From a virus (lineage: Duplodnaviria; Caudoviricetes): a stretch of 64,000 bases of DNA. The translations under genes were made by a program, and so were the position numbers. Of this stretch, positions 29,673 through 63,895 are shown piece by piece; positions within the stretch are counted from its first letter, which is position 1; each line of letters begins with the position of its first letter. A model generated the notes under the pieces. It made no database searches. It was not told the DNA's origin and worked only from the letters and a program-made list of their open reading frames with translations. The stretch is taken from IMG/VR virus record IMGVR_UViG_3300037047_000246; one strand, 5' to 3'.

Positions 29673-29778
29673 TTGCTAACCTCCAGCCAGGCGCTACGCT
29701 GCGGCAGCGGAGATTTCCGCGGTTCGACCGCCCCGGCGGACCGGGCCTGACTGAACATTGTCTGCGCGGACTGGCCGG

Positions 29779-30012
29779 TCACTCCCAATGCACCTGCGCG
29801 GCCAGAAACTCGTCCGGAGAGACGTCGATCGCATTGAACAGCGGCCTCATTTTGTTGTGCTCAGAACATAGGGCGAACGGCGCGCCGTTCTCAAGCACGA
29901 GCAGGCTTGCTGCACGCTTGCTGCAACGCTTGCTGGAAGAGCCTGACCCAGACCTCTTCCAGCGCCAGGAACACTGGAAATCGGAATCATTGACTGCGTA
30001 AGAAGCGCTCAT
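29779..30012 (-). CDS. Zinc-finger family A member with tag (AAQVHWE)
   Basis: QCSW...RCSKRA...PFALCSEH...DVSPDEFLAAQVHWE*. Confidence 0.75.
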   Translation of the reverse strand: MSASYAVNDSDFQCSWRWKRSGSGSSSKRCSKRAASLLVLENGAPFALCSEHNKMRPLFNAIDVSPDEFLAAQVHWE

Positions 30013-30154
30013 GACTCGCCTCTCTTCGCCTCTTCGCGGGTCTCGGCCCACGCGCGTCCGAGCACGATGCCGAACGACGCCCCGGCGAGCAGCCCGACCA
30101 GGAACAAAATCACTTGGGCCTCCCGCCCTTTGCCAGGAAGCAATCGTCCCAGTC

Positions 30155-30406
30155 TCATTTTGCCTCCACGGCGCACCAGCAGTCCAAGGCGATCGTGGAG
30201 ATGCGCCGCGCGTCCGCCGGACACGCCTTGGCGTCGCATCGATGCTTTGCGTAGACCGCCCACGCCACCAAGAGGGCGACGGGCACCGCGACGATCAGCA
30301 CCGTGAGCAGGAAGGAAGGCGGCTTGGTCTGCTTCACTTCTGAACTCCTTCGTGCTTGCACCACTCCGCAGCTTGAGACTCGCAAGCTGAAATGCCAAAT
30401 CGGCAC
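30155..30406 (-). CDS. Single-pass membrane micro-protein with a Cys-rich tail
   Basis: LLTVLIVAVPVALLVAWAVYA...CDAKAC...DCWC. Confidence 0.5.
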   Translation of the reverse strand: MPIWHFSLRVSSCGVVQARRSSEVKQTKPPSFLLTVLIVAVPVALLVAWAVYAKHRCDAKACPADARRISTIALDCWCAVEAK

Positions 30407-30540
30407 TGCACTTCAAACATGCCACTGTCTTCTACTCTGGGCGCAGACTGCATCGGGAGCTGCGGCGGCAAAATTGCTCCGTCGTACCCGCATCCGAGAA
30501 GCGCTACAGCAAGAATCGGCGCGGAAAGCTTCAGCATCAT
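30334..30540 (-). CDS. Small putative lipoprotein
   Basis: MMLKLSAPILAVALLGC lipobox. Confidence 0.55.
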   Translation of the reverse strand: MMLKLSAPILAVALLGCGYDGAILPPQLPMQSAPRVEDSGMFEVQCRFGISACESQAAEWCKHEGVQK

Positions 30541-30986
30541 TGCCTCGTCATGCGGCATTTGTAGGTGGATTGGCACCAGGAGCCGTCGCCGCAGTCGATC
30601 CTCATAGTGTCGATGCTGTCGGCTGACGAGCCATCCTGCGCAAAAGTGGTCATATAGGTCTCGGACACCGTACAACCGCCATGCTGTTTGGCGAATGGGG
30701 TCTGAGACTCATAGGAGCAGCCCGTGCCGCGGGCAGCGCAACCGTCTTGCGACAGAGCGTCGCAAGACACAGACGACAGGTCCGCTGCGCCGGCCGAATC
30801 AGTGTTGAAGACAGAGTCCGCAAGCGGGCCGCAATTTCCGGACTGCTCGACGCAAGAGACGACGTAAGTGGCATTCTTGGTCGCGCACGGGTTGAGCTGG
30901 TTCCGAACTTTTTCAGAATCGGGATCGTTAGAAGAGCAGCCGATGGCCGAGATGACCAAAAACGGCAAAAATCGCATGAGCTGCAT
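30537..30986 (-). CDS. Cys-rich lipoprotein, paralogue of 21636..22049
   Basis: FLPFLVISAIGC lipobox; GGAGGTG SD. Confidence 0.8.
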   Translation of the reverse strand: MQLMRFLPFLVISAIGCSSNDPDSEKVRNQLNPCATKNATYVVSCVEQSGNCGPLADSVFNTDSAGAADLSSVSCDALSQDGCAARGTGCSYESQTPFAKQHGGCTVSETYMTTFAQDGSSADSIDTMRIDCGDGSWCQSTYKCRMTRQ

Positions 30987-31285
30987 GAAACACCTCCGCA
31001 AGCTGTGAGTGGGAAATTGCGCTGTCAAAATTTCCAACAACCGTGCCTCTGAGAAAGTCGGAAGGGTTTACAGCTGAAGCGGCGAAACTTACGAGACGGG
31101 CAGTCCGCCGAAGGACAGCAGCCTCCAGCGCGACAGGCGGTTGCGCACAGCGGCTTGCAGGCCGTCGGAGCGGACGACCCGAGCGACCCTGTGCTTGTCC
31201 ATGAATGAAAGAGCCTCGGACAAATTGGAAAACTGCCGGCCGGGAAGGACCCAATGGCGGCCTTGGGCGATTTGGACGAAGAAGG

Positions 31286-31519
31286 TCATGAGCAGCGCAC
31301 CTGGTCCAGGAGCTCGAGGGCGTCGGCCTCTTCGGAAGAGATTTCGCGGACGGGCTCGTTGAGGCGGGGCTCGCGGGACCACTCGATCCACCACAAGGAG
31401 TGCTCCTCGCAGACGCGGGAGACGGAGACGCCCCCAGGCCTGCCCTGGGCGAAGAAGCGGGCGGCGGGGAGGTTGCAATGACACAGAGGCCCGGCATGCT
31501 TGCAAAGATTGCCGCTCAT
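31286..31519 (-). CDS. Zinc-finger family A member with tag (LDQVRCS)
   Basis: LCKH...CNLPAARFF...VCEEH...EISSEEADALELLDQVRCS*. Confidence 0.7.
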   Translation of the reverse strand: MSGNLCKHAGPLCHCNLPAARFFAQGRPGGVSVSRVCEEHSLWWIEWSREPRLNEPVREISSEEADALELLDQVRCS

Positions 31520-31731
31520 GACGAATGCACCAGCAGGACGGAATATTCGGCGGCCGAGACCTCGGAATACATGCCCATCAGGAGGGACGCCAGATCGTCG
31601 TGGCTCTTGCACAGGGCGAACGGCAGGCCCCGGTCGGACGCCCAGCACCGGAAAGCGGGCTGCCCGCACCGCTCATAGGGATGGCCGCCGTAGATGAGCC
31701 AACGGCAGGGAAAGTCGGAAGGGCTTGCCAT
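31516..31731 (-). CDS. Zinc-finger family A member with tag (VLLVHSS)
   Basis: PCRW...RCGQPA...PFALCKSH...EVSAAEYSVLLVHSS*; closest by eye to 29779..30012. Confidence 0.75.
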   Translation of the reverse strand: MASPSDFPCRWLIYGGHPYERCGQPAFRCWASDRGLPFALCKSHDDLASLLMGMYSEVSAAEYSVLLVHSS

Positions 31732-31740
31732 CGGCGCGCC

Positions 31741-32217
31741 TCAATTCAGAAAGAATCCCTGCGGAATCGGACTGCCCGGGTCTAAAATCTGCGAGCATCC
31801 GGTCCTGACGTCCTTGAGAGCCCCTGTGGCCGTCGCCGTCCGCAGATGCATCTCCTGCCTGGAAGAGAACAGCGAAGCAATCTCCCGGTCCAGCCGATCC
31901 TGGCTGATCGGGTGGAACAAGTCGGCGCCGGGAGCCGGCTGCACTGAGGCCGGCTGCCAGAACGGGGAGCCGAGAAGATTGGCGACGTCGCTCTTGCCGT
32001 AGGCGAAGTCCTGGCCCCGGAACGGCTCCGGATGCAAAATGCGGCCCTTCCCGTCGCTCGGCAGGTCGAGCGCGGCCGTCACCATGACGCATTTGCCGCG
32101 GACCAGGCTGTTGCGGGCCCGGAGATACCAGACGGCGGAGTCGGCAGCCGACACGACCACGAAATCGGGCTTGCGCGACAGGACCTTGCAAAACATCTTG
32201 GCGAGAATGCGGACCAT
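31741..32217 (-). CDS. Hypothetical protein
   Basis: Start at MVRILAK; GC3-rich codons. Confidence 0.6.
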   Translation of the reverse strand: MVRILAKMFCKVLSRKPDFVVVSAADSAVWYLRARNSLVRGKCVMVTAALDLPSDGKGRILHPEPFRGQDFAYGKSDVANLLGSPFWQPASVQPAPGADLFHPISQDRLDREIASLFSSRQEMHLRTATATGALKDVRTGCSQILDPGSPIPQGFFLN

Positions 32218-32317
32218 GGCCGAGCTTACGCCAAAGAGCGGCAGATTTCCACACCTGAAATTGGACGCGGTCCGAAGTACCCGGAGCGAACAGGAGTATT
32301 CGCAACGGAGGCCGCAA

Positions 32318-32837
32318 ATGCCGGACGCAGACCAGCCGCGGAAGAATGGCAAATGGACGCTGACGGGGCAGGCAAACACGCAATCCGACAAGGAATATTG
32401 GCAGCGCAACAAGGAGAAGGTCAAGGCGCAGCACGACCGGTATCGGCGGGAGAATCGGGACAAAATCAACGACAAGCGCAAGGACAGGAGGTGGTGCGAC
32501 GGGTACTCGCTCGCAGAGCGGTTTGCCAACGGCAAGGCATGCGCCGCCAAGCGAGGCATCGAATTTTCCTTGACATGCGAGGAACCCGCCGCCACAATCT
32601 CGCTCCCGTGCCATTATTGCGGCGGCGGGTTCGGCGAGAAGACTCGAGCCAGCCTCGGCTTGGACAGGCTGGACAGTAAGAGCGGCTACGTCGCCAGAAA
32701 CGTGGTGAGCTGCTGCCGGATCTGCAACAACAATTAAATGGGACAAGTTCACTCCGGAGGAGACGAAGGCGATGGTGCGAATTGTCATGGAGATGCGAGG
32801 AATATTGAAAGAAGCATGCCAGACATCTGATCGTTAA
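32318..32837 (+). CDS. HNH endonuclease with an apparent frameshift near 32733
   Basis: PCHYCG...GLDRLDSKSGYVARNVVSCCRICN, then continues one base shifted as IKWDKFTPEETKAMV...; GGAGG SD. Confidence 0.75.
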
Positions 32838-32914
32838 ACCTAGATGCGAGGGATCCCTCCAGTTCTATGAAATCCGTCTTGATTTATTTGGCTGAGTTCA
32901 AACTGCGAGGCGGG

Positions 32915-32959
32915 ACTGCGCTAGCCTTTCGGCCCTTCGGGCCGAAAGGCTAGCGCAGT
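32915..32959. terminator. Perfect 21-bp inverted repeat between convergent genes
   Basis: ACTGCGCTAGCCTTTCGGCCC-TTC-GGGCCGAAAGGCTAGCGCAGT. Confidence 0.75.
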
Positions 32960-33048
32960 TAAAAGTACTGAACAAGCGTTTGGTAAAACTATATGCCAGA
33001 CACTTCGCTGACCCCTGCCATATACTTAGCAAGTATATGGCATATACT

Positions 33049-33357
33049 TCAGCTGTCGTGCACTTCGGCGACGTCGATGGTGGTCAAGGCGATGTCCAGA
33101 TGCTGGCGCAGCTGCAGCACTTCGTCCCGGGTCAGGTCGAGGCTGGTGCGGCACCCGGAGTCTGGTCGGTCCAGGGTCAGGCACACGTGCCGGTCAAAAC
33201 GGTCTGGCGGCTCGTTCTCACAAGAGTAAAAGACAACAGACACGCCAACCTGGGCGCCCGTATGCAGCGAAGACTTGAACTGGCAGCAGTACTGGACGCT
33301 GCGGGCAAGCTCCTGGACAGTTTTGGCCGAGCGGCGGCCAGCTAGCAAGCGCTTCAT
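33049..33357 (-). CDS. Hypothetical protein with tag (VAEVHDS)
   Basis: Track ORF, coupled. Confidence 0.65.
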   Translation of the reverse strand: MKRLLAGRRSAKTVQELARSVQYCCQFKSSLHTGAQVGVSVVFYSCENEPPDRFDRHVCLTLDRPDSGCRTSLDLTRDEVLQLRQHLDIALTTIDVAEVHDS

Positions 33358-33638
33358 GAGTTTTGCACTTCCCAGACAGCAAGGTGCTTTTGCACAGTGG
33401 ACACCGCCCGAGCCAGGTTGGCCATCCGAGTCCGGTCGACCCGAGTCTTTGTCCGCTCTGGCTTGCGCTGCAAGCTGGTCAGATAGTCCTGCAGGTGGTC
33501 GAGCTCCCAGCGCCTCTGCATCGCGTCCACGGCGGACGCCACGGGCTCATCCGACACTTTTGTGCGCACTTTCGTGCGCTGCGCAGACGGAACTTGCAGC
33601 CAGGACCGGTTTGGGGCGGCTCGCCAGGAGTCAGGCAT
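33354..33638 (-). CDS. Helical protein with tag (VWEVQNS)
   Basis: Track ORF, coupled. Confidence 0.65.
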   Translation of the reverse strand: MPDSWRAAPNRSWLQVPSAQRTKVRTKVSDEPVASAVDAMQRRWELDHLQDYLTSLQRKPERTKTRVDRTRMANLARAVSTVQKHLAVWEVQNS

Positions 33639-33870
33639 TGCGCAGCCTGCGGGCCAGCCGGGGGCTCAGCAGAAGCTGCTGCTGGTCGGTCGGACCTATC
33701 TGGACCCGCAGCGCGGCAGCCAGCTGGGCTTCGAAGTCCTGGGCGGCTTTGAATGCGGGGTCGTTTGGACGAGTGGCTTGCAAAGCCGCCTGCACCCAGT
33801 TCAGCACCACTACGGCTTGCGAAGGGTGCATTTCGAACGCAATCTTCTTTCGAAAGGGGACTCTAGGCAT
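33631..33870 (-). CDS. Hypothetical protein
   Basis: GGAG SD; MPRVPFRKK... Confidence 0.55.
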   Translation of the reverse strand: MPRVPFRKKIAFEMHPSQAVVVLNWVQAALQATRPNDPAFKAAQDFEAQLAAALRVQIGPTDQQQLLLSPRLARRLRNA

Positions 33871-33898
33871 TTGGAAACGGCTCCTTTGAATCCCCACC

Positions 33899-34078
33899 TT
33901 ACAGCAGGGAGCTCAAGAGGTTCCCCTGTCCCACTCGACGGCCGGAGCGGTCCCTGGTGACGTCCTGGCTTTTGTCGTACTCTCCCACTTTGCGGCCAGT
34001 CTCGTCGAAGGCCTCGAGTTTGTTGCCCCGGTCTTCGATGCGCCCCACTCGCTTTCCCGACGCGTCTTTGAGCACCAT
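33899..34078 (-). CDS. 59 aa beta-hairpin-repeat micro-protein, below the track cutoff
   Basis: MVLKDASGKRVGRIEDRGNKLEAFDETGRKVGEYDKSQDVTRDRSGRRVGQGNLLSSLL*, with three (D/R)xxG(K/R)(R/K)VG repeats and a GGGAG SD. Confidence 0.8.
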   Translation of the reverse strand: MVLKDASGKRVGRIEDRGNKLEAFDETGRKVGEYDKSQDVTRDRSGRRVGQGNLLSSLL

Positions 34079-34145
34079 TGCAAATCTCCCTTCAGGATTG
34101 CCTACGGGGAAACTCGTCCCATTTACGGCAAATCCCCTCCGGGGA

Positions 34146-34289
34146 TGTGTTCAAACTGTGGCCTTTGAAGCTTTGGCAAAGCACATATGGCCTTCGAAGC
34201 AGTTCAACCGATCAGGCCGCTGGCCACCCCGAGGGTGTGTTCAAACTGTGGCCTTTGAAGCTTTGGCAAAGCACATATGGCCTTCGAAG
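34146..34289. repeat. Two identical 54-bp direct repeats separated by 36 bp
   Basis: TGTGTTCAAACTGTGGCCTTTGAAGCTTTGGCAAAGCACATATGGCCTTCGAAG at 34146-34199 and 34236-34289. Confidence 0.95.
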
Positions 34290-34557
34290 ATACAAGTTTA
34301 CCCGGCGATTTTCTCTTTCCCTTTTGGACCTCCCGCTCGTGTCTCTGTTTGGAATCCAGCAGTGCGGGCTTACAACAGCAACTGTCTAGGTCTGGGAAGC
34401 GAGGCCGGGTCTTTTGTTCAACTTCGCCTTCGAATGTCGAACTCGGGTGCAGCTGCACCAACTTGAACCGTTGCAGCTCCGCTACGCGCCTTTTATCCTA
34501 GGAAAGGGTGAGGCTTCGCTGCGACGGCACAGTCCGTGCGCCATAAAAGGCCTGAAA

Positions 34558-35160
34558 TTACGAGTCTTGCACCTGTTTGGTGACTAGGTCCTGCAGAAAT
34601 TTCTCCAACACCTTTTCGGACGGGTTCCTGATTCTACAGATAGTGCCGTCCCGCCGGACAGCTTCGAGCTGCACCTTTTCGGACGGCCGCTCTATGTACT
34701 GAATTGCCCAACTGTTTCGCCGTACTGCTGCAAGCTGCACCTTTTCGGACGGCCGCTTGATGAACTGTACAGCGGTCCAGTTTTTCTTGACTGCTGCAAG
34801 CTGGACCTGCTCGGACGGACTTTTGATGCACTGAATCGAATCCCCGTCCATTTTGACTGCTGCAAGCTGCACCTGCTCGGACGGTCGCTTGATGTACTGG
34901 ACTGAGCGCCAATTCTGCCGGACTGCTGCAAGCTGAACCTGCTCGGAGGGGTTTTTGATATACCGGATCAACCAGCCGTTCTGCCGGACTGCTGCGAGCT
35001 GAACCTGCTCGGAGGGGTTTTTGGTATACCGGATCAACCAGTTTTGCTTGACTGCTTCGAGCTGGAACCGCTCCTGGCACAGACCCAGCGCGCATTTCAA
35101 GCCCAACTCGAATGCCACTTCAGGAGTCAGTCCGTACTTTTTCAACAAAGACTTCAGCAT
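34558..35160 (-). CDS. DUF4116-like 22-aa tandem-repeat protein with tag (TKQVQDS)
   Basis: About seven copies of PSE(Q/K)VQLAAVxxNxxxI(Q/R)YI. Confidence 0.88.
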   Translation of the reverse strand: MLKSLLKKYGLTPEVAFELGLKCALGLCQERFQLEAVKQNWLIRYTKNPSEQVQLAAVRQNGWLIRYIKNPSEQVQLAAVRQNWRSVQYIKRPSEQVQLAAVKMDGDSIQCIKSPSEQVQLAAVKKNWTAVQFIKRPSEKVQLAAVRRNSWAIQYIERPSEKVQLEAVRRDGTICRIRNPSEKVLEKFLQDLVTKQVQDS

Positions 35161-35189
35161 GACGGCCCTTCCAGCGGGATGTGGCAGGT

Positions 35190-35894
35190 TCAGCCGAACT
35201 TGAGCGCCGGCTCGACCCTCTTGACCGCCTGGGCCAGCAGCGCGCGGGTGTTGTCGTCGACTTCCTTGATGCGCCTTTCGTAGTCCTTGGAAGCCGAGAC
35301 CTTGGTTTCGGTGTCGAACAGGGTCTGCATGGCGTTTTCCAGGTCATCGCCGACCATGCCGAGCTCGCCGAGCAGTCCCCGCACCAGCTCTTCTGCGTTG
35401 GCCTTGAGGCGTTTGGCGGTCTCGACCACGAACAACCGGTCGAAAGTGGCCTGGTCCAGCACCTGGGCCTGCAGCATCCCCAGAGCCGCGTCGCGCGCCA
35501 CCGTGTAGCGGTTGGTGCACACCACGGACACGTACCGGGTCTCCCTTGCGGCAGGGTCCCCCGGCACTTCCACCGAGTACGGGACGGAGACGGTGGTCAC
35601 GTCGCATTTGAACGTGTCGTTGTACAGCTCCCTCTTGTCGGCGCCGTACTGGCGCATGTCGGACTGAATCATCGAGAACCTGGCCTCTGCCTCCTGCAGC
35701 GCCGCCTTGAGCTCGGCCGCGGTCTGGGCCTTTTCGGCCATGGCCGGGTCGAATCCGAGGCGGACCACGTTCTTGTCCCTGCGGGCGCCAGCCAGAGCCG
35801 GGTCCTGCAGCTGGACAGTCAGGGCCGAAGCGGCCTGTCCGTCCACGGTCTTTTTGCTGGCAAGCCGCTTGAGGGTGTCGAGTGCTGATGTCAT
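35190..35894 (-). CDS. Hypothetical protein (234 aa)
   Basis: AGGAG SD, upstream promoter-like element and strongly GC3-biased codons. Confidence 0.8.
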   Translation of the reverse strand: MTSALDTLKRLASKKTVDGQAASALTVQLQDPALAGARRDKNVVRLGFDPAMAEKAQTAAELKAALQEAEARFSMIQSDMRQYGADKRELYNDTFKCDVTTVSVPYSVEVPGDPAARETRYVSVVCTNRYTVARDAALGMLQAQVLDQATFDRLFVVETAKRLKANAEELVRGLLGELGMVGDDLENAMQTLFDTETKVSASKDYERRIKEVDDNTRALLAQAVKRVEPALKFG

Positions 35895-35963
35895 GCGCGT
35901 CGTCTCCTGGGTTGGTTGTCTGCTCGCTGCTCGGTACGCAGCAAGCCGCCCAGCTTCCGCCAC

Positions 35964-36248
35964 TCACTGAGACTGCACTTTATACACCTCGGCATCAAGC
36001 AGCAGCTGGGCGGCTTGCTCGTCGGTCAGCGCTAAACGCCGGCTTTTGGTGGCAGGCACAACCGCCCAACACTGCTGGCAATACCGGGTTAGAACGGTGT
36101 TGAACTGGTCTGGATTTTGGTCATCCTCGCACCAGAACACCACCCACTGGGTGGGCAGGTTGAGGCATCGGTGGCGCCACCGGGCCGGGCATGACCGGCC
36201 GCAGTCATCGGTGTTGTAAACGAATCGTCCAGTAATTTCTATCATCAT
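35964..36248 (-). CDS. Zinc-finger-like protein with tag (VYKVQSQ)
   Basis: HRC...RYCQQC...LTDEQAAQLLLDAEVYKVQSQ*. Confidence 0.7.
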   Translation of the reverse strand: MMIEITGRFVYNTDDCGRSCPARWRHRCLNLPTQWVVFWCEDDQNPDQFNTVLTRYCQQCWAVVPATKSRRLALTDEQAAQLLLDAEVYKVQSQ

Positions 36249-36289
36249 GCGAGGAGCTCCTTGGGTCTACTGCAGGCCGCGCAAAGTTT

Positions 36290-36412
36290 CCAGGCGCGAC
36301 GCTGCTGCGGCGGCGCGGGCGGCGGGCCGAGCGAGCGGCGCGCGGCGCGCGGAGCGCGGCGCGCGGACGGCCCAAGCGCTCGGCGGCGCGAGCCAGGCGC
36401 GCGGCGCCGCTC
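36290..36412. repeat. Near-pure GC low-complexity intergenic tract
   Basis: GGCGCGCGG and GCGGC units; very few A/T bases. Confidence 0.8.
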
Positions 36413-36908: not shown

Positions 36909-36940
36909 TTTGAGGCAAGCAGCTTGCTAAAAACTCAGAA

Positions 36941-40163: not shown

Positions 40164-40376
40164 TCACCAATCCCCCAGCGCTCGAAACGCTGCTGTCAGC
40201 TTCGCCATATCCTTGGGCTGCGGCTCGTCGAGCAGCTCCCAGCGCACGTTGAAGACGTGCTTGCGCCGGAACCGCGCGAGCCAGGAGAGCACGCGCCCGA
40301 GCGGGATCGTCGCGTGCGTCGTGGGCGCGTTGCCGGCGCACTTCTCGTACGTCACCTTCATCAGCACTCGGACCAT
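40164..40376 (-). CDS. Micro-protein
   Basis: GGAGGTGA SD after a promoter-like element. Confidence 0.65.
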   Translation of the reverse strand: MVRVLMKVTYEKCAGNAPTTHATIPLGRVLSWLARFRRKHVFNVRWELLDEPQPKDMAKLTAAFRALGDW

Positions 40377-40443
40377 GCTCTATCACCTCCGCGATCGTAT
40401 ATTCGCGGCGCGCGGCGGGCTCCGGCCGGCTTCAGGGAAGGCG

Positions 40444-41427: not shown

Positions 41428-41480
41428 GTCACCTCTTTGGCGGGTACGCGGGAGGGCGGCGCACTGCCGCCCTCCCCTCA
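41428..41480 (-). promoter_or_regulatory. Promoter-like cassette with an 11-bp hairpin
   Basis: GGGAGGGCGGC-AGTGC-GCCGCCCTCCC, then GCGTACCCG and GAGGTGA. Confidence 0.65.
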
Positions 41481-42729: not shown

Positions 42730-42783
42730 GTCACCTCCGCGATCCGGTACGCGCAACCGCCGCGCGCCTCCGGTGTTGTTTCG
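42730..42783 (-). promoter_or_regulatory. Promoter-like cassette upstream of the ligase
   Basis: CGAA-N28-CGTACCG...GGAGGTGA-caac-ATG. Confidence 0.7.
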
Positions 42784-42793
42784 CCAGCACCAG

Positions 42794-46076: not shown

Positions 46077-46113
46077 CGGTACGACTCGCCGAGCGCGATC
46101 TGCGCCGGCGCTT
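46077..46113 (-). promoter_or_regulatory. Promoter-like cassette; 35/37 identical to 46891..46927
   Basis: AAGCGCCGGCGCAGATC(G/T)CGC(T/C)CGGCGAGTCGTACCG followed by GGAGGTGA. Confidence 0.75.
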
Positions 46114-46735: not shown

Positions 46736-46890
46736 GGTGCTTGCACCTCCCGAACGGCCTCCTCGGCCTCTGATCGACAGACAGGATCTTCATTTCACTC
46801 ATTCGCCGGCGCGCTCGCCTCTTGCTTCGCGTACGGTCAGCGCGCCCGGATCGCCGATGCGGTTTGAACTAGTCGCTCATCACTTCCGTC

Positions 46891-46927
46891 CGGTACGACT
46901 CGCCGGGCGAGATCTGCGCCGGCGCTT
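46891..46927 (-). promoter_or_regulatory. Promoter-like cassette
   Basis: Near-identical to 46077..46113. Confidence 0.7.
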
Positions 46928-49008: not shown

Positions 49009-49779
49009 ATGAACAACCGACTGCGCGCCATTTGCGACAAGTTGCCCTGGACGTTCGAAACGTCTGCCGGACGGGACGAGCGGACGAGAGACATCGTGCT
49101 CGGTCTGGGCGATCTTGCCGCTCTCGGGCGCCGGGCGCAGAAAGCGCTCGACGAGCTCGAGCGCTCAGGCAGCTTCAGGGGCCTAGCCCCCTACCTGAAG
49201 ACCAACGAAGGGCGCATTGACCAGCTGAGGTTGGACGCCGCGTCCATGCCGCCTGCTGCAGAGCTCAGCCCAGCGCAGCTGCGCTGGGTGCGGCGCCTGA
49301 AGCTCGAGTGCGTGCGCATCGAACCGAGTTCGGCTTCCACGAGATGGGTAGCTCAACTGTGCGGAGTAGGCTACGATTGGGAGCCCCGCCGCAGCCGATT
49401 CGCAATTGTGCGGACGCAAGTGCAAGTGGCTGCGGCAGTAATTGCCCCATCGCGCAACCACTGCGATTCGTACGCCATAGGGTCTTTCGGTCCAGATCAT
49501 TTGACTCTGGACATGTCGGACGACAGCGCGCCGGAACTGGACCCTGCAAAGCTCGCTCAATCTGCAGCCGAACGGCTGGTGACCTGCTGCGATCGCGGCT
49601 TTCGCTCGGATATGGCCAATGTGCGGGTAGCCAGGAAGCAGGTGCAAGCGAAGCTTGTCGAATCCGGCAAGTGCCTCGAGTGGACGGAGATGTGCCGGGA
49701 AATGATCGCGAGCGCCAAGCGCGAAGCGATGGCGGGCGAGTATGGACAGCAAGCCGTGAAGCACGTGATGGAGACTTGA
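49009..49779 (+). CDS. Hypothetical protein with tag (VKHVMET)
   Basis: 256 aa, divergent from 48341..48877. Confidence 0.75.
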   Translation: MNNRLRAICDKLPWTFETSAGRDERTRDIVLGLGDLAALGRRAQKALDELERSGSFRGLAPYLKTNEGRIDQLRLDAASMPPAAELSPAQLRWVRRLKLECVRIEPSSASTRWVAQLCGVGYDWEPRRSRFAIVRTQVQVAAAVIAPSRNHCDSYAIGSFGPDHLTLDMSDDSAPELDPAKLAQSAAERLVTCCDRGFRSDMANVRVARKQVQAKLVESGKCLEWTEMCREMIASAKREAMAGEYGQQAVKHVMET

Positions 49780-49814
49780 GCGCCGGCGCAAGGCGCCGTG
49801 CGCCGCGCGTACCG
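49775..49814 (+). promoter_or_regulatory. Conserved promoter-like cassette upstream of the BRCT gene
   Basis: Near-identical to 38361..38400. Confidence 0.75.
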
Positions 49815-49846
49815 GGCAGCGGACAACAAACCAAGAGGCGAACGTC

Positions 49847-50386: not shown

Positions 50387-51133
50387 ATGGTTGGCAGATT
50401 TGTGGTGGACAACAACTCTGATCCGGCGGAAGCAAAGCAAGTTTTGCGCCAGCTCCGCCGCACAGTCCGGTTGGGCAAGATAGCGGAGCGCGCTCTGAAG
50501 TCTTTGGAGGAGAGAGGATCTTTCGACAGCAGGGTCGTCGTGCTGCACAGGGAATATGGCTACTACTGCGCTGCTGTGCGAAAGTTGTCTGCTTACAGAC
50601 CCTTCAGTCGGGACGACGTGCCCGGTTGGCCTGAGCTGACTGTGGTGTGCGGCAAGAAGACCATAGGGTCCCACGGCGGCTCCCGATTCGACCAAGTGTC
50701 TTTGTGGCTGCTTGGCACAGGGTTTGCGCCGCGCCGCCATATCAAGCCGGTCGACCAGTGGGAGCAGGTGACCCTGCGCAAAGGCGTGCCGGGAGCGAGG
50801 CTCGGCACATGTCGCATGAAGGCGAACGGCGAAGTGACGTTTGTCGTGTCGTCGTCTCTAGAAGAGACGACGAACTGCGTGATACGCATCAGCCGGAATC
50901 CAGGCGCTTCTGCCAAGTCCTTGGCAGAAGCGCAGCGCTTTGCGCGCGTCGTGGCGGCATGCTTGGTGGATGTCGGCCGCCCCCACGAACTGGAGCTGTT
51001 CAAAAAGTGTCCGCAGTACTTGACGGACCTGCGGCGCGCTGCGCCTGACTGGCTCATTGAAGACGGACACGTCCACCGGATGTTCAACGACATTCTGGAC
51101 GCTGTTGCAGTTGTTCGAGTGATGGAGGCGTGA
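50387..51133 (+). CDS. Hypothetical protein with tag (VVRVMEA)
   Basis: 248 aa track ORF with a GAGGGTGA SD. Confidence 0.75.
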   Translation: MVGRFVVDNNSDPAEAKQVLRQLRRTVRLGKIAERALKSLEERGSFDSRVVVLHREYGYYCAAVRKLSAYRPFSRDDVPGWPELTVVCGKKTIGSHGGSRFDQVSLWLLGTGFAPRRHIKPVDQWEQVTLRKGVPGARLGTCRMKANGEVTFVVSSSLEETTNCVIRISRNPGASAKSLAEAQRFARVVAACLVDVGRPHELELFKKCPQYLTDLRRAAPDWLIEDGHVHRMFNDILDAVAVVRVMEA

Positions 51134-51515
51134 GCATGATCGAATTCAAATCGGCCGGGGCGACGAGGTCTGGCAAGCGGGTGCAGGCGCACTTCAAAGT
51201 GGACGGCCAAACCCGGTGCTGGACTTTGACGCCGACGCTCGCCGAGCAGTTCAAAAAGCAGTTCGATAGAGGCGGCACATCGAGAGACATCACCGTGTAC
51301 CAAATGTTGGCGAGCATGATCGGAGGCGACACGATCAGGCTGCGCCAGACCGCGCAGGAGCGCAAGATGCAGCATCGCGTGCAGCGCTGCGGCTGTCCGA
51401 GGCCGACAGCGCGCTGGTCGCATGGACGAGGCAGGCGCTGCAGTTTGGCATGAGCGATGCCAGGCTGCGCGAGATCTTCGAAGAAGCGATCGTGCAAAAC
51501 ACGCACGAGTCGTGA
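51130..51515 (+). CDS. Hypothetical protein split by a frameshift near 51380, or followed by a 21 aa tag-only micro-ORF (51450..51515)
   Basis: The alternative frame reads AALRLSEADSALVAWTRQALQFGMSDARLREIFEEAIVQNTHES*. Confidence 0.65.
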
Positions 51516-51561: not shown

Positions 51562-51690
51562 TCCCAGTTTAATTGGAGGACTTCTGCCTCACATATTAAA
51601 TTGGCTACTGCGCGGAATGTCGGGCCATCGTCCGCGCCATCTCGCCCGGCCAGGTGTTCCTATTAGCTACTGTCTAGACGCATGTTGGCC

Positions 51691-52056
51691 TCACATTCCG
51701 TGGATGCTTTTGACAAGATCTTTGCGCAAAAACTGTACAATGAGAGATGCAGCGCGTCTCGGGGATGCGGTTTGGTGTAGCGCGAACTCTGTCGTGAAAA
51801 AAGCCGGAGTGCCCGTCACGACAGTGGCCGTGACCGTAGAGTGGCGGAGCTGGGACTTGAAGAATGACATTTCGGCCACGCGGCATCCGCCAAAGCTCAC
51901 CGACTCCCGGTAAAAGAATACGCCTGCTGCGCGCGATTCGAGCGGCGTCATGGCGAGCTCGTAACCTTCTTTCTTGAGTCTGGCCGCAACGACAGCATGC
52001 GCTTCTCTGGCGAGAATCTCGAAAGCTCTGCTGCGATTGCTAGACAACGCTCTCAA
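51691..52056 (-). CDS. Hypothetical protein
   Basis: Coupled ORF. Confidence 0.55.
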   Translation of the reverse strand: MRALSSNRSRAFEILAREAHAVVAARLKKEGYELAMTPLESRAAGVFFYRESVSFGGCRVAEMSFFKSQLRHSTVTATVVTGTPAFFTTEFALHQTASPRRAASLIVQFLRKDLVKSIHGM

Positions 52057-57115: not shown

Positions 57116-57118
57116 GTT

Positions 57119-57172: not shown

Positions 57173-57175
57173 ATG

Positions 57176-58039: not shown

Positions 58040-58062
58040 GCTGGACCGGTTCCATAAACGAA

Positions 58063-58674
58063 CTAAACTTTCATGACTCCTTCCACGAAGCACTCGTCCA
58101 CGATGCGGTGCAGGTCTTCCCTTGTCGCGCCCTTGGCGATGGATGCTTTGAGCGGACCCATCAGGTCTGCCATGTGCAGCTCGAGCGGCGAGACCGATGT
58201 CCTGAGCTTGGCCCGCACATTGGCGGCGAGCACGTCGATTTGCGGGTGGTATTCCAGAGTCGGGTCCTCCCGCAAGACCTTTTCGACAGCCTTCATCATT
58301 CGGCAAGCCGCGTCGCTGCTCCAACTGTGCACGGTGTTGCCTTTGTTCGGCCCGTGCTCCAGCACTCGCCCTTTGCCGAACATCTCGGCGCAGTGCTTCG
58401 GCCAGCCGGCATACAGCAGCGACGCCACCAGCAGCGCCTCCAGGCGCGGCCTGGGGTCGTTTGGATGCCGTGGCGCTAGCGAAAGGACGTTCGTCGACAG
58501 CAAAACCCCGTTTCGCTGCGGATATACGTGCACCACGAACGAGCGGCCTCCTGCGCCCTTCATGGTCAGGCAGTCAGCTTCGAGAAAGTCCCAGGCGGCA
58601 GACCCTTCAATCATTTCGCGGACCGCGGCCTCCGCAGCTTTTCGCTGAGCCACTGTCCGCCCAAGTTCGCTCAT
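58063..58674 (-). CDS. Hypothetical protein with helical tag (VEGVMKV)
   Basis: ...SIAKGATREDLHRIVDECFVEGVMKV*; GGAGGTGA SD. Confidence 0.75.
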   Translation of the reverse strand: MSELGRTVAQRKAAEAAVREMIEGSAAWDFLEADCLTMKGAGGRSFVVHVYPQRNGVLLSTNVLSLAPRHPNDPRPRLEALLVASLLYAGWPKHCAEMFGKGRVLEHGPNKGNTVHSWSSDAACRMMKAVEKVLREDPTLEYHPQIDVLAANVRAKLRTSVSPLELHMADLMGPLKASIAKGATREDLHRIVDECFVEGVMKV

Positions 58675-58678
58675 GCGG

Positions 58679-60514
58679 TCACCTCCGGTGGCTCGCTACT
58701 GGCAGCAGCGGGCGATCGCCGCCGCCCGCTGCGGGCGGCTCCCAGACCCAGCGCTTTTTGCCCAAATCCCAGATTCTGGAGTAACCTTGGGCTTCCCTGA
58801 GCTCGACTTCAGTTTTGCCTGTCTGCTTCTCTGCAGCGGTTTTGCGCAGCCCGGATTTGTGGTGCCTCTTTCCGCCTTTCACCCAGTAGTAGTCCGGCTT
58901 CAGTTCGCCGTCCAGCCTGAATCCGATCTTGCCGTACACGCGGCCGTCGAACAGCCGATTGTCGGAGAAAGACACCACAGACCGTGGCGAACGGTCGACT
59001 GCGAACATTTGCATAACCTTGGACCACACCCCATGTACTCGAAAGCCTGGATGAGCGGACATTCGAACGAGTTCCCAGTCATGCTTGGACTGGCGCGTGG
59101 GGCGCTTAAACGAGCAGCAAGCGATCATTTTTTGGTTGTAGAACACGCCGTAGTTCTCGACAGATTTCGTCTGTCCTATGTAGTGATGCTGCTCGTAGAA
59201 CTTGTCTGCGGCAGTCCTGTCCACAGAGCGAATTTCGCATTCGGACGGCCTGAGCGGCGCTGGCCGGTTCGCTCCGAGCCGGTTTCGCAGCAAATTCTCC
59301 ATCTTGGAGCGGCCAGCCGTCCACTCGTCCTCAAAAATCATGATAAAGTCGCATCCTGACGCAGCGGCGTTGGCATGCTTCTCGGCGTCTCTCTTTCTTG
59401 AGTCCTTGCGCGAATGCCACTTCAGGCCGTTGAACTCGATCGCCAGGTTCTTGGGCGGAACCCAGATGTCGTAAGTCAGATTCCCTACTTTATGCTCCAG
59501 CTCTGCTTCGACGCCGAGGCTCTGGATAAATGCGAATACTTCGTTTTGGCCTCCAGACACCCGCGACGTCGAGCAGCCGCAGGTCAAGGACTTGCCGAGC
59601 CGAATTCCGCTCCATCTAGGGTAGTATTCGCCCGAGCACAACCTACACCGAGCGCGGAACGGCTTGCTTGCGTTTGAAATCGTCTCAAGAGCTACCGGGC
59701 ACCAGTCCGGAAGCTGCTCCGGAGAGATAGGAGCCCGTAGCTTTCGGATTTCGTCTTTGCCTGATTCCCACTTCAGTCTGCAGGACAGGTAGCACCGGCC
59801 GCACGACCTCGCTTTGCCCCGCGTGACGGCGAACACCTTTGAAAAAATTTCTCTGCCGCAATCGCATCGCCACCAGACTTTTTTGTTCGAGTTGGCTTTG
59901 ACGATTTGCGGATCGCGCATTTGCAAGCGACCGAACTTCTTGCCGGCCAAAGACTCAGCCGACAGTTCGTTGCACCGGCCGCAGGTGCCGATTGTACCTT
60001 GCAGCACGTATCTGGCCTGAGCTTCTGTGGTCCGGCCGCAGTCGCACCGCCATGTCAGCTTCCTGTGCGATTCCGGAGCAATGTGCGCCAGGCCCTTTGC
60101 ATCTGCCAGGCATAACTTTCCAAACTTCTTGCCGGATATTTGAACGATAGGCATGTCGCGGCAGTGTCCGCACGTCCTGTCGCGTCCGACGACGTCAAAA
60201 ACGCGGGCGGCGACCTCGCCGCCGCAGTCGCACACCCACTGAACCTTCTTGGCCGACCCTGCGGTGACGGTCGCGGGAGTCTTCATGCGCAGCGACCCGA
60301 ACCGACGCCCGGCCATGTCCCTGGTCGAGATTTCGTTGCACCGGCCGCAGGATCGGGTCCGCCCTTTCAACACGTTGCCGACCAATTTTGTCGCGGTTCT
60401 GCCGCAATCGCATCGCCAACGGGCCTTGGTTCGCCATCCGAATGGGCCTGGGTCTAACAGAATCAGTTTGCCAATGCGCGCATCCTGATGTAAACACTCG
60501 ATTTTGGCTTCCAT
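58679..60514 (-). mobile_element. Hef-like homing endonuclease: 4-5 GxxFGxL...WxCDCG...CGxC zinc repeats, a Vsr/DUF559-like nuclease domain and a GNAT-like C-terminus
   Basis: Repeated WRCDCG; YDIWVPPKNLAIEFNGLKWH; FSDNRLFDGRVYGKIGF...IWDLGKKRWVW. Confidence 0.85.
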
Positions 60515-60658
60515 ACCATCAAACGTACAATTAAAAACCAACGACGGGATAACATACAGTCGCGGAGCCACTCTCAATGGTTTACACCGGGCCGTTCTGA
60601 ATTCAGGCTTATTGGAGGAAACGGAGGAGGGGATCTGGCGGTATTGCTGAACCGGTGC

Positions 60659-61765
60659 TCAGTCGTTGAGGCTCTTGCGGATCTTGACGTAGACAGACAT
60701 CAGCTCCTGCACCCGGGTGAGCTTCCAGTCCTGGATGATCTTCATCGACAGGACCGACTTGACCGCGCCGATCGCGAACTCGGACGGGATGTCGTTCATC
60801 CACCCGAAGACGTTCTTGGTGATCTTCATGATCTTTTCGTCCTGCTTGGCCCGATCGGTGCCGGACGGTGCTTCGCGGCCGAGCTTGGCGATTTCGCCGC
60901 AGCCCGCGATGGCGCAAACCATGATGCGGTCCACGGTCATGCCGTCGATGTTGGGCTTGACGCCTTCCCGGACCAGCTTGTTGATGATGGGTTCGACATG
61001 CCGGTAGTGGTCGAGCCATACTCGAAACTTGACCGCTGCCGCCTGCCCGACGCGCCCAGCCACCAGCATCGTCTGGAAGTCCACAGACTCCTTCGCCGCC
61101 AGGTTCAGATCGCGAGCGGCCTGGGTCCAGGCGCGGGGCGAGGGGTGGCTGTAGGCGGTGTCGTCGCCCTCGGGCGGCGGCATCAGCAGGTATTCCTGGT
61201 TCTTGCTCAGGAAGCCCACGACCAGGCCGTTGATGCCGGAGTCCGTGGCCCACTGCTGCCAGGGGTCGAAGCTGGACTCCACCTTGTAGACCATGCAGCG
61301 GTTGGTCAGGGCGTGCGACACCGGGAGGCTGAATGCGCCCTCCTCGGGCAAGTTGCCCGTGGCGATGATGCTGTGGATGTCGAGCGCCCGGCCGTTGATG
61401 CTCCGGAACTGGAACAGCTCCAGCATCGGGTTCTGCAGCTCCGGCTTGGCCTTGTCGATCTCGTCCACGATGAGGACCACGCCCTGGGGCCGCGTGCCCT
61501 TGATGGGCAAGAACTTGGGGGTGGCGTACTCCGAGAGCTTGGTCTCGGAGTCGATCATCGGCAGGCCCATCAGGTCGGGGGCCTCGAGCACGGACAGGTT
61601 CAGGTAGACCTGCTCCCGGCCCTTGGACTGCGCGGCCTGTATTGCGCACTCCGTCTTCCCCACTCCAGCGTTGCCGAAGATGATGACGTTCCCGCCCGCC
61701 TCGATCGAGAAGCGGTAGATGGTCATCATTGTGGCCTGGTCGATGCTGTGTACGCCGGTAAGCAT
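60659..61765 (-). CDS. MoxR-family AAA+ ATPase
   Basis: Walker A GNAGVGKT, Walker B LIVDEID, sensor ATGN, ALTNR and PSPRAW. Confidence 0.93.
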   Translation of the reverse strand: MLTGVHSIDQATMMTIYRFSIEAGGNVIIFGNAGVGKTECAIQAAQSKGREQVYLNLSVLEAPDLMGLPMIDSETKLSEYATPKFLPIKGTRPQGVVLIVDEIDKAKPELQNPMLELFQFRSINGRALDIHSIIATGNLPEEGAFSLPVSHALTNRCMVYKVESSFDPWQQWATDSGINGLVVGFLSKNQEYLLMPPPEGDDTAYSHPSPRAWTQAARDLNLAAKESVDFQTMLVAGRVGQAAAVKFRVWLDHYRHVEPIINKLVREGVKPNIDGMTVDRIMVCAIAGCGEIAKLGREAPSGTDRAKQDEKIMKITKNVFGWMNDIPSEFAIGAVKSVLSMKIIQDWKLTRVQELMSVYVKIRKSLND

Positions 61766-61871
61766 TCTGTCACCTCATTGGGTTGGTTGTCTGTCGGGGC
61801 TCCATCGCCCCATCCGCCGATACGCGGCACGGCGGCGCGCCTCCGCCACCTTTTGAGCAGTACGGTACCAC

Positions 61872-62597
61872 ATGAAACCGAGATGGTGCAGCGAACATGC
61901 GATGGAGTTCAAACAGTTTGGGCCTCGAAGCTTCCAGTGCCCCGAGTGTTACAATCGGAAGAGGCGAGCGCGCTACGCTGTCCGCAAGGACAGTTTGCGC
62001 GCGGTCCAAACAAGGGACCGCGCTCGGCGCGCGGCTTCTGGCAAAACGCGAGCTTGGCGCGTGGCTTACCACGAGAAGCTGAAGTGCGAAACCTTCTCGC
62101 ACTACGGCAGCAAGTGTCCTTGCGGCGAAACCAGGCTGAGTCGCCTGGCGCTCGATCATGTTCGAGACGACGGGCATGCGCACCGTGTCAAGACTCGCCT
62201 GAGCGGCTGCAAATTGTACTCCTGGCTCAGGATGCACAACTGGCCTGGAGGCTACAAGGTACTTTGTCACAATTGCAACATTCTGAAGCGCGCTGCTCGG
62301 TATGGCAGCCGTGAGCAAACACGTCGCGCTGCCATTAGACTTGCGCGAGAAGCGCGAGTCAAGCTGCAAGTCATCACACATTACGGCGAGAGTAGAGCGG
62401 CTTGCGTGCGCTGCGGATACGACAGGCTCGAAGCCCTCACCATCGATCACGTTGGCAATGATGGACACCTGACTCGCGGTCAAATGTCGCCTGGATACCA
62501 ATTTTATGCTGCGTTGGCCCGGCAGGGATATCCGGACGGATACCAGACGCTGTGCTTTTGCTGCAACATGGAAAAGGAAATATTGCTGCATAGATGA
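61872..62597 (+). mobile_element. Endonuclease-like protein with two tandem HNH domains
   Basis: HYG...C..CG...LALDHV..DG...LCHNCN and HYG...CVRCG...LTIDHV..DG...LCFCCN. Confidence 0.85.
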
Positions 62598-62747
62598 GGG
62601 TATGCGGCGGGCGACTGCGCTGCCGCTGCCTTTTGAGCGTAATCTTTGGGCTGCTCCGGCCTTTGATCGCGCGACGCGCGCGATCCGCTCTTCGAAGAGG
62701 ACGGGAAGTCCGGCCGCCCGCCGCGTACCGAACGGTGAGGTGATCTC

Positions 62748-62990
62748 GTGAGATTGCAAGGACACGATTGGGAGCGCATGGAATGGGCGGGGTTCACGGA
62801 CGCCAACCCGTGGGATCGCGACGCGCAGCGCCAGTTTCTGTACATCTGGAGATGTAACGACTGCAAGGCCGTGGTCAAAGCCACCGAATCGTGCGGAATG
62901 CCGGGCCGGTTGGTTCTCGTGTGCGCCGGGCTGCCTGCCGGGTTGACTTGCGAGCAGTCGGCAGCGCTGAGAGACGTTCATTTGAGCTGA
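62748..62990 (+). CDS. CxxC...C micro-protein with tag (LRDVHLS)
   Basis: GHDW...WRCNDC...LTCEQSAALRDVHLS*; GAGGTGA SD. Confidence 0.75.
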   Translation: MRLQGHDWERMEWAGFTDANPWDRDAQRQFLYIWRCNDCKAVVKATESCGMPGRLVLVCAGLPAGLTCEQSAALRDVHLS

Positions 62991-63265
62991 CAGGAGGCAA
63001 CCTGTGCCGAAGTGCATGGCGGAAAACGACGACTCCAGCTGCAGCAACGAGGCGACTGTTTTCGGCGCACTGGGGCGGTCAAATCCTTTGCTTCTGTGCT
63101 GATGCGACGAGCACTGGGTGCACTGCCTTCCAGGCGAGCGCCGCATGGACCAGGACGAGTGGCTTGGTTTGCAGGCTTTGCAAGAGGTGCACCGCATTTG
63201 AGTAGCGCCCTGGCCCGCAAAAGCAGGCGGAGCTGCTCCGCCCGATCGCGTATTGGGCAGCGGAG

Positions 63266-63895
63266 GTGACGGACATGGCAGAGTCGAGCTATGCGAAAGT
63301 CAGCAGGCTCATCGCAGAGACAGCGGCTGGCAGGGCTATGTTTGCTCGGGCGCGCGAGCGCCTCGTGACGCTCAATGTGTCCGGCGTGAGGTTCAAGCTG
63401 CAAACAGCGAGAAGCGTCGGCGACAAGGCCGTCGCCTTGCCGATGGCCGTAGTGTCCCACTGCGACGGAGAATACGGCAGCACGCACAACGGGCAAATTT
63501 GGATGGCCGGCTCTAGCTTTTTGAGCAGCCAGGAGTGCCACGACCTTGTGCGCGCCGCGTTCGGCGTGACGGTCAAGACGTACTTCATCGACAAAGGGGT
63601 GCTCGTCGGCAACAAACACCGCAAGAACACCGCGAGCTTCTACGAGTATGCGGCGGGCATGTTCGAGAAGGAGTATGCCGCAGAGATGCAGGCGGCCCAG
63701 GGTCGGCTCCTGAAGCAAACGCAAGAACTGCTGGAATCGAGCGAGACGGTCAGGCTTGGCGAGGAGTTTCTCGCGCAGCATGCGGTGGCAGACATCAAGC
63801 TCGCTCTGGCCGCATACGCGCACCTCGGCAAAGACATCCTGAAGCAAGCGATACAGGAGTATATCGTGGACGACGTTTTTGAGTTCGATTCTTGA
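63266..63895 (+). CDS. Hypothetical protein with an extended tag-like end (VDDVFEFDS); ATG start probably 63275
   Basis: GGAGGTGA SD after the promoter cassette. Confidence 0.75.
   Translation: MTDMAESSYAKVSRLIAETAAGRAMFARARERLVTLNVSGVRFKLQTARSVGDKAVALPMAVVSHCDGEYGSTHNGQIWMAGSSFLSSQECHDLVRAAFGVTVKTYFIDKGVLVGNKHRKNTASFYEYAAGMFEKEYAAEMQAAQGRLLKQTQELLESSETVRLGEEFLAQHAVADIKLALAAYAHLGKDILKQAIQEYIVDDVFEFDS

Follow-up and report, generated by a model that had tools for sequence, protein, structure and literature searches.

A putative middle-type promoter cassette fused to a ribosome-binding site in a divergent gene block of uncultured giant phages

Phage-specific promoter classes, each with a consensus of its own, are exemplified by the promoters that depend on gp28 and gp33/34 of SPO1 and by the late promoters that depend on gp55 of T4. 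The early promoters of the N4 virion RNA polymerase have an obligatory hairpin, in a fixed register and with a 3-nt loop. Promoter switching by phage sigma factors has been described for SPO1 (PMC13401047). Short conserved cassettes are also known in phages: the PeSLs of T4-like phages are composite terminator/promoter cassettes located in hyperplastic regions (PMC4122927, PMC2839356), and in the Cluster K mycobacteriophages a sequence called SAS stands directly against the start codon and is believed to have a role in translation, while ESAS consists of sequence-conserved 17-bp arms (PMC3203893). Here we describe a recurrent cassette in a 64,000-nucleotide stretch of DNA (hereafter the window, to which coordinates refer unless stated otherwise) from a virus of the Caudoviricetes, IMG/VR record IMGVR_UViG_3300037047_000246. 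Each cassette places conserved boxes at defined distances before a Shine-Dalgarno (SD) sequence and a start codon, and the cassettes probably constitute a middle-type promoter class at which a phage sigma-like factor directs the RNA polymerase of the host.

The window corresponds to positions 297348-361347, in reverse orientation, of a complete phage record of 362,524 bp (groundwater and coal-bed metagenomes; GC about 59%). Leftward genes begin at about 61.8 kb and rightward ones at about 62.0 kb, the rightward run extending about 240 kb further, and therefore the cassette series sits at the main strand divergence of the genome. A weight matrix was made from columns -24 to +7, position 0 being the C of CGTA, and was used with a threshold of at least 14 bits and the reversed sequence as a control. 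Scanning the whole 362-kb genome gave 27 sites against 0-1 in the control, with a single weak outlier, the others lying between 29698 and 77340; the cassettes occupy a divergent 48-kb block (29.7-77.3 kb) and are essentially missing from the rest of the genome. All 27 copies are intergenic and co-oriented with the downstream gene. Within the block the motif precedes 22 of the 63 genes whose upstream gap is 45 nt or longer and one of the 38 whose gap is shorter. Matches to a strict bipartite pattern number 10 in the window, compared with 0.42 +/- 0.57 in 100 dinucleotide shuffles (maximum 2), and across the genome no 7-mer is more enriched upstream of genes than CGTACCG. In six divergent pairs, arranged back to back, the CGTA cores are separated by 59-144 bp, and the tightest pairs, at 59-94 bp, leave no space for separate upstream promoters. 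The block contains small open reading frames (ORFs) and DNA-metabolism genes (ligase, HNH and homing endonucleases, AAA ATPase). Repeated DNA involving cassettes does not extend beyond them in the block: in four pairs, 31-64 nt long, identity is 94-98% and the flanks are unrelated, one pair being on opposite strands. Such near-identical cassettes (38-64 nt) in unrelated flanks suggest recombination at the level of the cassette. A megablast search with 20 kb of the block against GenBank phages gave no match.

What are the conserved parts of the cassette? Column statistics over the 27 copies reveal three boxes rather than two, in the overall order CGGARRTC, 12 variable nt, GCGTAYCG, 6 nt, GGAGGTG, 5-7 nt and ATG, preceded by box A. 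Box C, GCGTACCG at -1 to +6, contains a CGT of which the C is found in 26 of 27 copies and the G and T in all 27. Box B is RGCGGARRTC at -23 to -14 (C at -21 in 23/27, G at -20 in 26/27, A at -18 in 19/27; at -16 a purine in 24/27 and C in 3/27), and its core, CGGARRTC at -21 to -14, lies 15-16 nt upstream of CGTA, the canonical place of a -35 element. The 12 positions separating boxes B and C are fixed in length, nearly all G/C and free in sequence. Box A, T(C/G/T)(A/G)A at -32 to -29, is present in 16 of 27 copies compared with 3-5 in control windows. After box C comes the SD sequence GGAGGTGA, the first G of which is at +13 in 11 of the 21 SD-bearing copies and at +12 to +14 in 18, and the start codon lies at +24 to +28 in 19 of 27. 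A preliminary description, made from the DNA letters of the window, had already given the distances to SD and ATG correctly. It took boxes A (as TYRA) and C for the two elements of a promoter with a 27-28-nt spacer; this missed the middle box, and it is box B, not TYRA, that is conserved in all five motif-bearing relatives. The TGA in box A doubles as the upstream gene's stop in just 6-7 of 27 copies, and an upstream stop codon was rejected as a general explanation of this box.

Copies with a CA-rich leader of 39-59 nt keep the boxes but have lost the link to SD. The CA-rich stretch, GACAACCAACCCA-like, lies between box C and SD in three long-leader cassettes (35895-35925, 49822-49845 and 61766-61805) and is also found in the orthologous leaders of two relatives, G003 and G005. 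It may be an unstructured leader that enhances translation.

Six further giant-phage records were found by an exact-pattern scan of IMG/VR followed by searches with sigma3, one of the sigma factors of this phage (the phage itself being G000). Five of them bear the motif, namely G001, G002, G003, G005 and G006, of which G005 is the closest relative. They were scanned with the matrix in fetched blocks rather than whole records, and hits against control hits were 40/1 in G001, 20/0 in G002, 26/0 in G003, 31/0 in G005 and 11/0 in G006 (128/1 in total). Since the matrix spans -24 to +7 alone, box A, SD and ATG serve as independent read-outs. In each relative the sites are clustered within 30-50 kb in a divergent arrangement. 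Boxes B and C, their spacing and the SD at +13 are universal across the six genomes, the first G of SD being at exactly +13 in 65 of 105 sites, and the consensus is shared although the six phages differ in GC content and gene content. Box A is confined to G000 (16/27) and G005 (17/28); at its position G002 has TGATC and G001, G003 and G006 have nothing, with the remainder of the motif intact. Box C of G006 differs in being GCGTATCT. In 13 orthologous promoter pairs, orthology being judged by homology of the downstream gene, boxes B and C and SD are 60-100% identical, whereas identity of the spacer falls to 20-40% and its stems are not kept. A homologue behind a motif in any relative is found for 8 of 23 motif-headed ORFs. 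The strict cassette pattern, of which the G001-G003 blocks have 4-7 copies per 34-53 kb, has 46 matches in 185,579 cellular genomes, all of them singletons; its longest form has two sites in G000 and none in the fetched regions of G005 and G006.

In all six genomes, as in a bipartite promoter of the sigma type, two conserved boxes flank a spacer of fixed length and free sequence. Structured RNAs, on the other hand, show covarying stems or variable lengths. The two boxes are unlike each other and the gap between them is constant, and they are therefore read as sites for sigma domains 4 and 2 rather than as a structured RNA.

How does the cassette compare with the systems outlined above? As with SPO1 and T4, it belongs to a large lytic phage with several sigma genes, no detected RNA polymerase and a private consensus unlike that of the host, and the putative promoters are clustered by genome region, hence presumably by time. 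It differs from them in the consensus itself, CGGARRTC-N12-GCGTAYCG, in the locking of the promoter to SD with a predicted start at GGAGG, and in being known here from sequence alone. With promoters for extracytoplasmic function (ECF) sigma factors of group 4 it shares CGT(A) as the -10 core, a purine-rich -35 box with GGA(A/G) in most copies, a spacing of 15-16 nt and a register in which the C of CGT precedes the start by about 13 nt, whereas it has an extra conserved TC after the purines and none of the sigma factors of the phage is a clear two-domain ECF protein. The housekeeping sigma70 pattern (TTGACA-N17-TATAAT) does not fit, as only G/C is found 17 bp after box A. Like PeSLs, short conserved cassettes head small, fast-turning-over ORFs, homology is limited to the cassette in a region of small variable ORFs, and a stem-loop is associated with the promoter. 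Unlike in PeSLs, the promoter is not of the sigma70 type, and the stem-loop, which lies inside or over the -35 box and spacer rather than beside the promoter, occurs in about a third of copies, has no T-run and is absent in G005. The resemblance to SAS/ESAS is that an oriented conserved motif stands immediately upstream of many start codons and is kept by orthologues across related phages, about half of the copies having an upstream inverted repeat; here, by contrast, the conserved boxes are arranged like -35 and -10 elements, and conservation does not extend to the stems. Some copies have a GC-rich hairpin upstream of the start site as N4 promoters do, but it is facultative and variable, and no polymerase of that kind was detected. 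No paper describing the consensus was found in the literature, where a search with the heptamer gave primers only, and a survey of huge phages refers to sigma70 and AsiA genes in phages without mention of promoters (PMC7162821).

The cassettes of the window are as follows (C0, position of the C of CGTA; ATG distances are relative to C0; bits are matrix scores).

29678..29731, minus strand: cassette, C0 29698; CGTAGCG; box A 3-4 nt closer than usual; ATG at +26 (97-amino-acid ORF, 29379-29672); 22.0 bits
35918..35971, minus strand: cassette, C0 35938; long CA-rich leader; ATG at +44 (234-amino-acid ORF); 26.6 bits
38347..38400, minus strand: cassette, C0 38367; TGA of box A also ends the upstream ORF; 40 nt recur almost identically at 49775-49814; 31.7 bits
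40383..40436, minus strand: hybrid copy (near 40403), read by eye; boxes A and B and SD in register; box C GAATATAC; ATG of a 70-amino-acid ORF at 40376; below 10 bits
41428..41481, minus strand: cassette, C0 41448; 11-bp stem in the spacer; ATG at +24 (326-amino-acid ORF); 28.3 bits; folding z -5.7
42731..42784, minus strand: cassette, C0 42751; heads a DNA ligase-like gene (413 amino acids, phrog_114); ATG at +25; 29.0 bits
44096..44149, minus strand: cassette, C0 44116; ATG at +28 (70-amino-acid ORF); 29.8 bits
46063..46116, minus strand: cassette, C0 46083; ATG at +26 (147-amino-acid ORF); promoter kept by the G002 and G003 orthologues; 30.8 bits
46877..46930, minus strand: cassette, C0 46897; 38-nt near-copy of the cassette at 46083; 31.2 bits
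48883..48936, minus strand: cassette, C0 48903; at a strand switch, the divergent plus-strand gene starting at 49009 (about 100 bp off); ATG at +26; 25.5 bits
49775..49828, plus strand: cassette, C0 49808; within a plus-strand island; CA-rich leader; ATG at +39; promoter kept by the G002, G003 and G005 orthologues; 32.5 bits
53421..53474, minus strand: cassette, C0 53441; no hairpin (folding z +1.2); ATG at +25 (323-amino-acid ORF); 25.0 bits
57120..57173, minus strand: cassette, C0 57140; heads a 526-amino-acid HNH-family gene; promoter kept by the G002, G003 and G005 orthologues; 29.7 bits
58680..58733, minus strand: variant cassette, C0 58700, AGTAGCG; 10-11-bp stem; ATG at +26 (203-amino-acid ORF); 16.5 bits
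61804..61857, minus strand: cassette, C0 61824; last leftward copy, at the main strand divergence; heads an AAA-type ATPase gene through a 59-nt CA-rich leader; 31.9 bits
62691..62744, plus strand: cassette, C0 62724; first rightward copy; GTG start at +24 (80-amino-acid ORF); 23.9 bits
63216..63269, plus strand: cassette, C0 63249, CGTATTG; 7-bp stem; ATG at +26 (206-amino-acid ORF); 20.9 bits

The canonical copies in the window are counted as 15, the series being made up of 14 core sites, 62724(+) and the variant at 58700, and 11 more plus-strand copies follow to the right of the window as far as 77340, 13 kb beyond its end. The 14 core positions given in the preliminary description all carry CGTA(C/T/G)(C/T)G on the strand it assigned to them; its list lacked 62724(+) and the extension of the series to 77340. 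Of its two variants, that near 58695 is a true copy, AGTAGCG, with 16.5 bits, and that near 40390 has boxes A and B and SD in register with GAATATAC in place of GCGTACCG. It had also seen no copy left of about 29 kb, where the best scores indeed reach just 11-12 bits.

In the region 46877-46900, the cassette at 46897 has a degenerate SD (GGAAGTGA), which is followed by a mini-ORF of three codons (ATG AGC GAC TAG). A weak second motif lies at 46835, after this cassette and before a gene of 157 amino acids.

Where would transcription start? A second class of sites in G000 bears on this question. It has the form YGTAWN-N7(or 8)-ATG without SD, with 41 cases at N7 and about 16 at other spacings; 31 cases open ORFs of at least 50 codons. 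This class has no conserved -35 box, is spread genome-wide and is absent from the block between 33 and 81 kb; examples in the window are at 19346(-), 23837(-), 28100(-), 28126(+) and 32230(-). To judge from this arrangement, the genes are probably expressed from leaderless mRNAs. Because leaderless translation needs a transcript that starts at the A of ATG, the first RNA nucleotide would follow the Y by 13 nt. SD of the block class has its first G at +13, which matches the leaderless register, and therefore block transcripts are predicted to begin at GGAGG. A start at +13 is consistent with the register of ECF -10 elements.

The favored explanation can be outlined as follows. The host core polymerase, together with a phage-encoded sigma or sigma-like factor, would bind two boxes, CGGARRTC serving as a -35-like box and GCGTAYCG as a -10-like box with a 12-nt gap between them. 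The third box, yTTGAa/TCAA at -33 to -29 in this phage and its closest relative, is placed as an upstream-promoter (UP) element or an activator site would be. DNA would melt at GTA and transcription would start about 13 nt downstream of the C of CGTA, so that the mRNA would begin with the SD sequence and have its ATG 11-15 nt later. Cassettes would thus head transcription units on both arms of the 48-kb block. As the block consists of small ORFs and DNA-metabolism genes, the class is read as middle-type. The preliminary proposal of a phage-specific promoter class in a sigma-encoding phage is to that extent supported.

Which factor might read the boxes? The genome encodes three proteins with Sigma70_r2 and a protein of 557 amino acids with two region-4 helix-turn-helix motifs.

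Window 11307-12143, minus strand: sigma1, 278 amino acids; regions 2, 3 and 4; 25-31% matches in relatives other than G005
sigma2, 258 amino acids; regions 2 and 4
In G000:C1:51742-54942: sigma3, 247 amino acids; Pfam region 2 only; 57-71% identical in G003-G006, with a long invariant core
In G000:C1:242501-246500: sigma-like protein of 557 amino acids; found in each of the six motif-bearing records, even in the two fragments where no sigma was detected

All four are candidates for the cognate factor, and none is singled out. The genes of sigma3 and the 557-amino-acid protein each lie behind a host-type promoter, TTGnnn-N17-(TGn)TAnnnT, and G004 and G005 have kept the one before sigma3. Such promoters would suit early genes that the host holoenzyme reads and factors that are made early, and hence a middle role for the CGTACC class. 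A sigma70 matrix had 21 hits genome-wide against 23 in the control and an extended -10 pattern 14 against 11, so that no host-type class can be called statistically and just the sites before these two genes are noteworthy. The CGTACC motif was not seen in the 110-120 nt or so upstream of the sigma and sigma-like genes, which speaks against autoregulation. A search for related loci with sigma1 gave no close relative. Pfam models for the beta, beta-prime and T7-type RNA polymerases (PF00562, PF00623 and PF00940) found none in the genome, which is a weak negative; PF00940 had no hit, but its control was silent too. The virion RNA polymerase envisaged in the preliminary description accordingly finds no counterpart at the level of these models. 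Two ORFs with collagen triple-helix repeats, probably fiber proteins, lie to the left of sigma1 (2741-4543 and 6410-7285).

An elaboration to which we give little credence starts from the GTA core that the two promoter classes share at -10: sigma3 would read GTA in both classes and the 557-amino-acid protein would add the reading of the -35 box in the block, giving a split sigma factor and, as its products, leaderless and 'SD-first' mRNAs. The pair might be adapted to a 2-aminoadenine genome, since the phage has a divergent ORF of the adenylosuccinate-synthetase family (PurA/PurZ-like; G000:C1:249203-250210) and a gene for adenylosuccinate lyase (PurB; window 8778-10229).

Several points weigh against a middle promoter class read by a phage factor. 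No homologue of sigma1 is found in G005 at E <= 0.001, although G005 has the full three-box motif; sigma1, which the preliminary description had favored, is therefore a poor candidate. The counterparts of sigma2 in relatives are merely 25-31% identical. The predicted structure of sigma3, which has a pLDDT of 58, shows an extra C-terminal four-helix domain, and its Foldseek matches, which are all sigma factors and all have E >= 0.2, are not decisive for a sigma4 domain. Because divergent phage RNA polymerases of the phiKZ or N4 type can evade Pfam, absence of a phage polymerase is unproven. Melting of the GC-rich -10 region would be difficult, and AAC, a hallmark of ECF promoters (PMC8103513), is missing from the -35 box. 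Promoters do not usually have so rigid a link to SD as the 6 nt seen here, which would fit an RNA-level element too. The predicted start of the block transcripts is a matter of geometry, carried over from the leaderless class. If the block is truly early, it would need a host sigma factor or a factor delivered with the virion. Finally, the one RNA data set with this DNA, a groundwater metatranscriptome (X8), contains 6-13% of the words searched for and yields 13 short contigs of low depth, none spanning a cassette; they are unable to show 5' ends and give no support either way.

The spacer hairpins, which had led to the idea of hairpin extrusion in the preliminary description, need separate treatment. 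The stems it named were confirmed, with lengths of 11 bp at 41448, 10-11 bp at 58700, 7 bp at 63249 and 5-10 bp at 49808. Overall the excess is modest. Folding of -32 to -1 against dinucleotide shuffles gives a mean z of -0.74 to -0.80 in G000, with 4 of 27 copies below -2, and the excess is confined to the left arm (29698-61824, mean z about -1.4), the right arm (62724-77340) being at about 0. No more than about a third of copies have a hairpin, and about 30% have a significant stem. Mean z in the relatives is -1.1 in G001, -3.8 in G006 (8 sites), about -0.2 to -0.5 in G002 and G003 and +0.2 in G005. Over 101 sites from four genomes no column pair or hairpin center has a significant excess of complementarity (best Stouffer z 1.8). 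Because there is no covariation in a fixed register, stems are not conserved and folding varies among genomes, the spacer hairpin is facultative and variable in register, and is not a defining part of the element. The hairpins are probably terminator-like or 3'-end-protecting structures for the upstream message that have been built into the promoter, or else were inherited in a sub-family of duplicated cassettes. A role as terminator of the upstream co-directional gene was considered and rejected, as their strength follows the genome arm and not the presence of an upstream ORF. Also rejected was a hairpin flanking box C that sequesters SD: it is striking in a few G003 copies, but the region from -14 to +19, which covers the flanks of box C and SD, folds no better than shuffles in any genome (mean z -0.6 to +0.1).

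Could the cassettes nevertheless work in another way? A two-box promoter of TYRA and CGTACC, 27-28 nt apart and bridged by extrusion of a hairpin or cruciform as in N4 or by a looping activator, draws on a box A that is real in G000 and G005 and on left-arm spacers that do fold better than shuffles. It would have to accommodate a conserved box in the canonical -35 place, the absence of box A from G001, G003 and G006 and its replacement in G002 with the other boxes intact, the lack of excess folding in the right arm and in G005 (z +0.18), the variable registers, the loss of stems by orthologous promoters and, as a weak negative, the failure to find an N4-type polymerase; we regard it as very improbable. 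Partial dyads in the spacer could also bind a dimer, and many oriented intergenic copies in one block might be expected if the boxes were stoperator-like operators for a phage repressor or roadblock protein that silences or paces the block. The dyads, however, are not conserved, the two boxes are unlike each other and not symmetric, their geometry is that of -35 and -10 elements, and +13 is the putative first functional RNA nucleotide in two promoter classes, so that operators hardly come into consideration.

Two further readings touch the level at which the cassette acts and the protein that reads it. If it acted in RNA, as a processing or translation-control element recognized by a nuclease or an RNA-binding protein in polycistronic transcripts, somewhat like SAS of the Cluster K mycobacteriophages and with CGUACCG and an occasional hairpin before it as the parts recognized, the rigid SD spacing (+13 in 65 of 105 sites) would be readily understood, as would the invariably intergenic position and co-orientation with the gene, and the spacer does pair with the SD region in some G003 copies when read by eye. 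Yet there is no conserved register of pairing among the 101 sites, no excess folding from -14 to +19 and no Rfam family that matches the cassette; the motif is bipartite with an unconserved gap of fixed length, the divergent pairs at 59-94 bp leave no room for other promoters, and the copies with leaders of 39-59 nt keep the boxes and not the SD link. All this makes an RNA element an improbable explanation. Reading by a host sigma factor alone, alternative or ECF-like, would make the block truly early with no phage factor. Many small ORFs beside the main strand divergence do look early, no sigma gene is tied to the motif, and the -10 box has the ECF hallmark CGT (PMC8103513). Against this, the strict cassette never occurs twice in any of the 185,579 cellular genomes, a single consensus is shared by six phages of differing GC and gene content, and two phage sigma-like genes have host-type promoters, as expected of early genes that drive a later class; a host sigma factor acting alone is unlikely on these grounds, though worth keeping in mind. 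A phage sigma-like factor that directs the host polymerase to a middle class of promoters is thus the explanation we prefer.

Some other features of the block lie apart from the cassettes. A tandem array at 34653-35041 has about 5.5 copies of a 66-bp unit (73-86% matches) within or beside a 200-amino-acid ORF (34558-35160). Two near-perfect palindromes, at 32915-32959 (45 bp) and 50904-50933 (30 bp), have 93% identity. The deepest metatranscriptome contig (16x, against 2-5x elsewhere) corresponds to 51577-51756 and covers the convergent gap between the end of the plus-strand island at 51453 and the next minus-strand gene; it may represent a small RNA or a stable 3' end.

Taken by itself, the element is a real and fairly ordinary kind of phage gene switch, of which the consensus is new, and the reading with a long spacer and hairpin extrusion is corrected. 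The 137 aligned promoter instances from six uncultured giant-phage genomes of 180-430 kb provide a precise consensus, a predicted start and four candidate factors, by which the transcription program of a lineage without a cultured member becomes testable in vitro. Putative promoter, ribosome-binding site and start codon are fused in a cassette of about 60 nt that has apparently been copied as a unit, and this cassette can serve in the annotation of such phages and as a compact part for expression.

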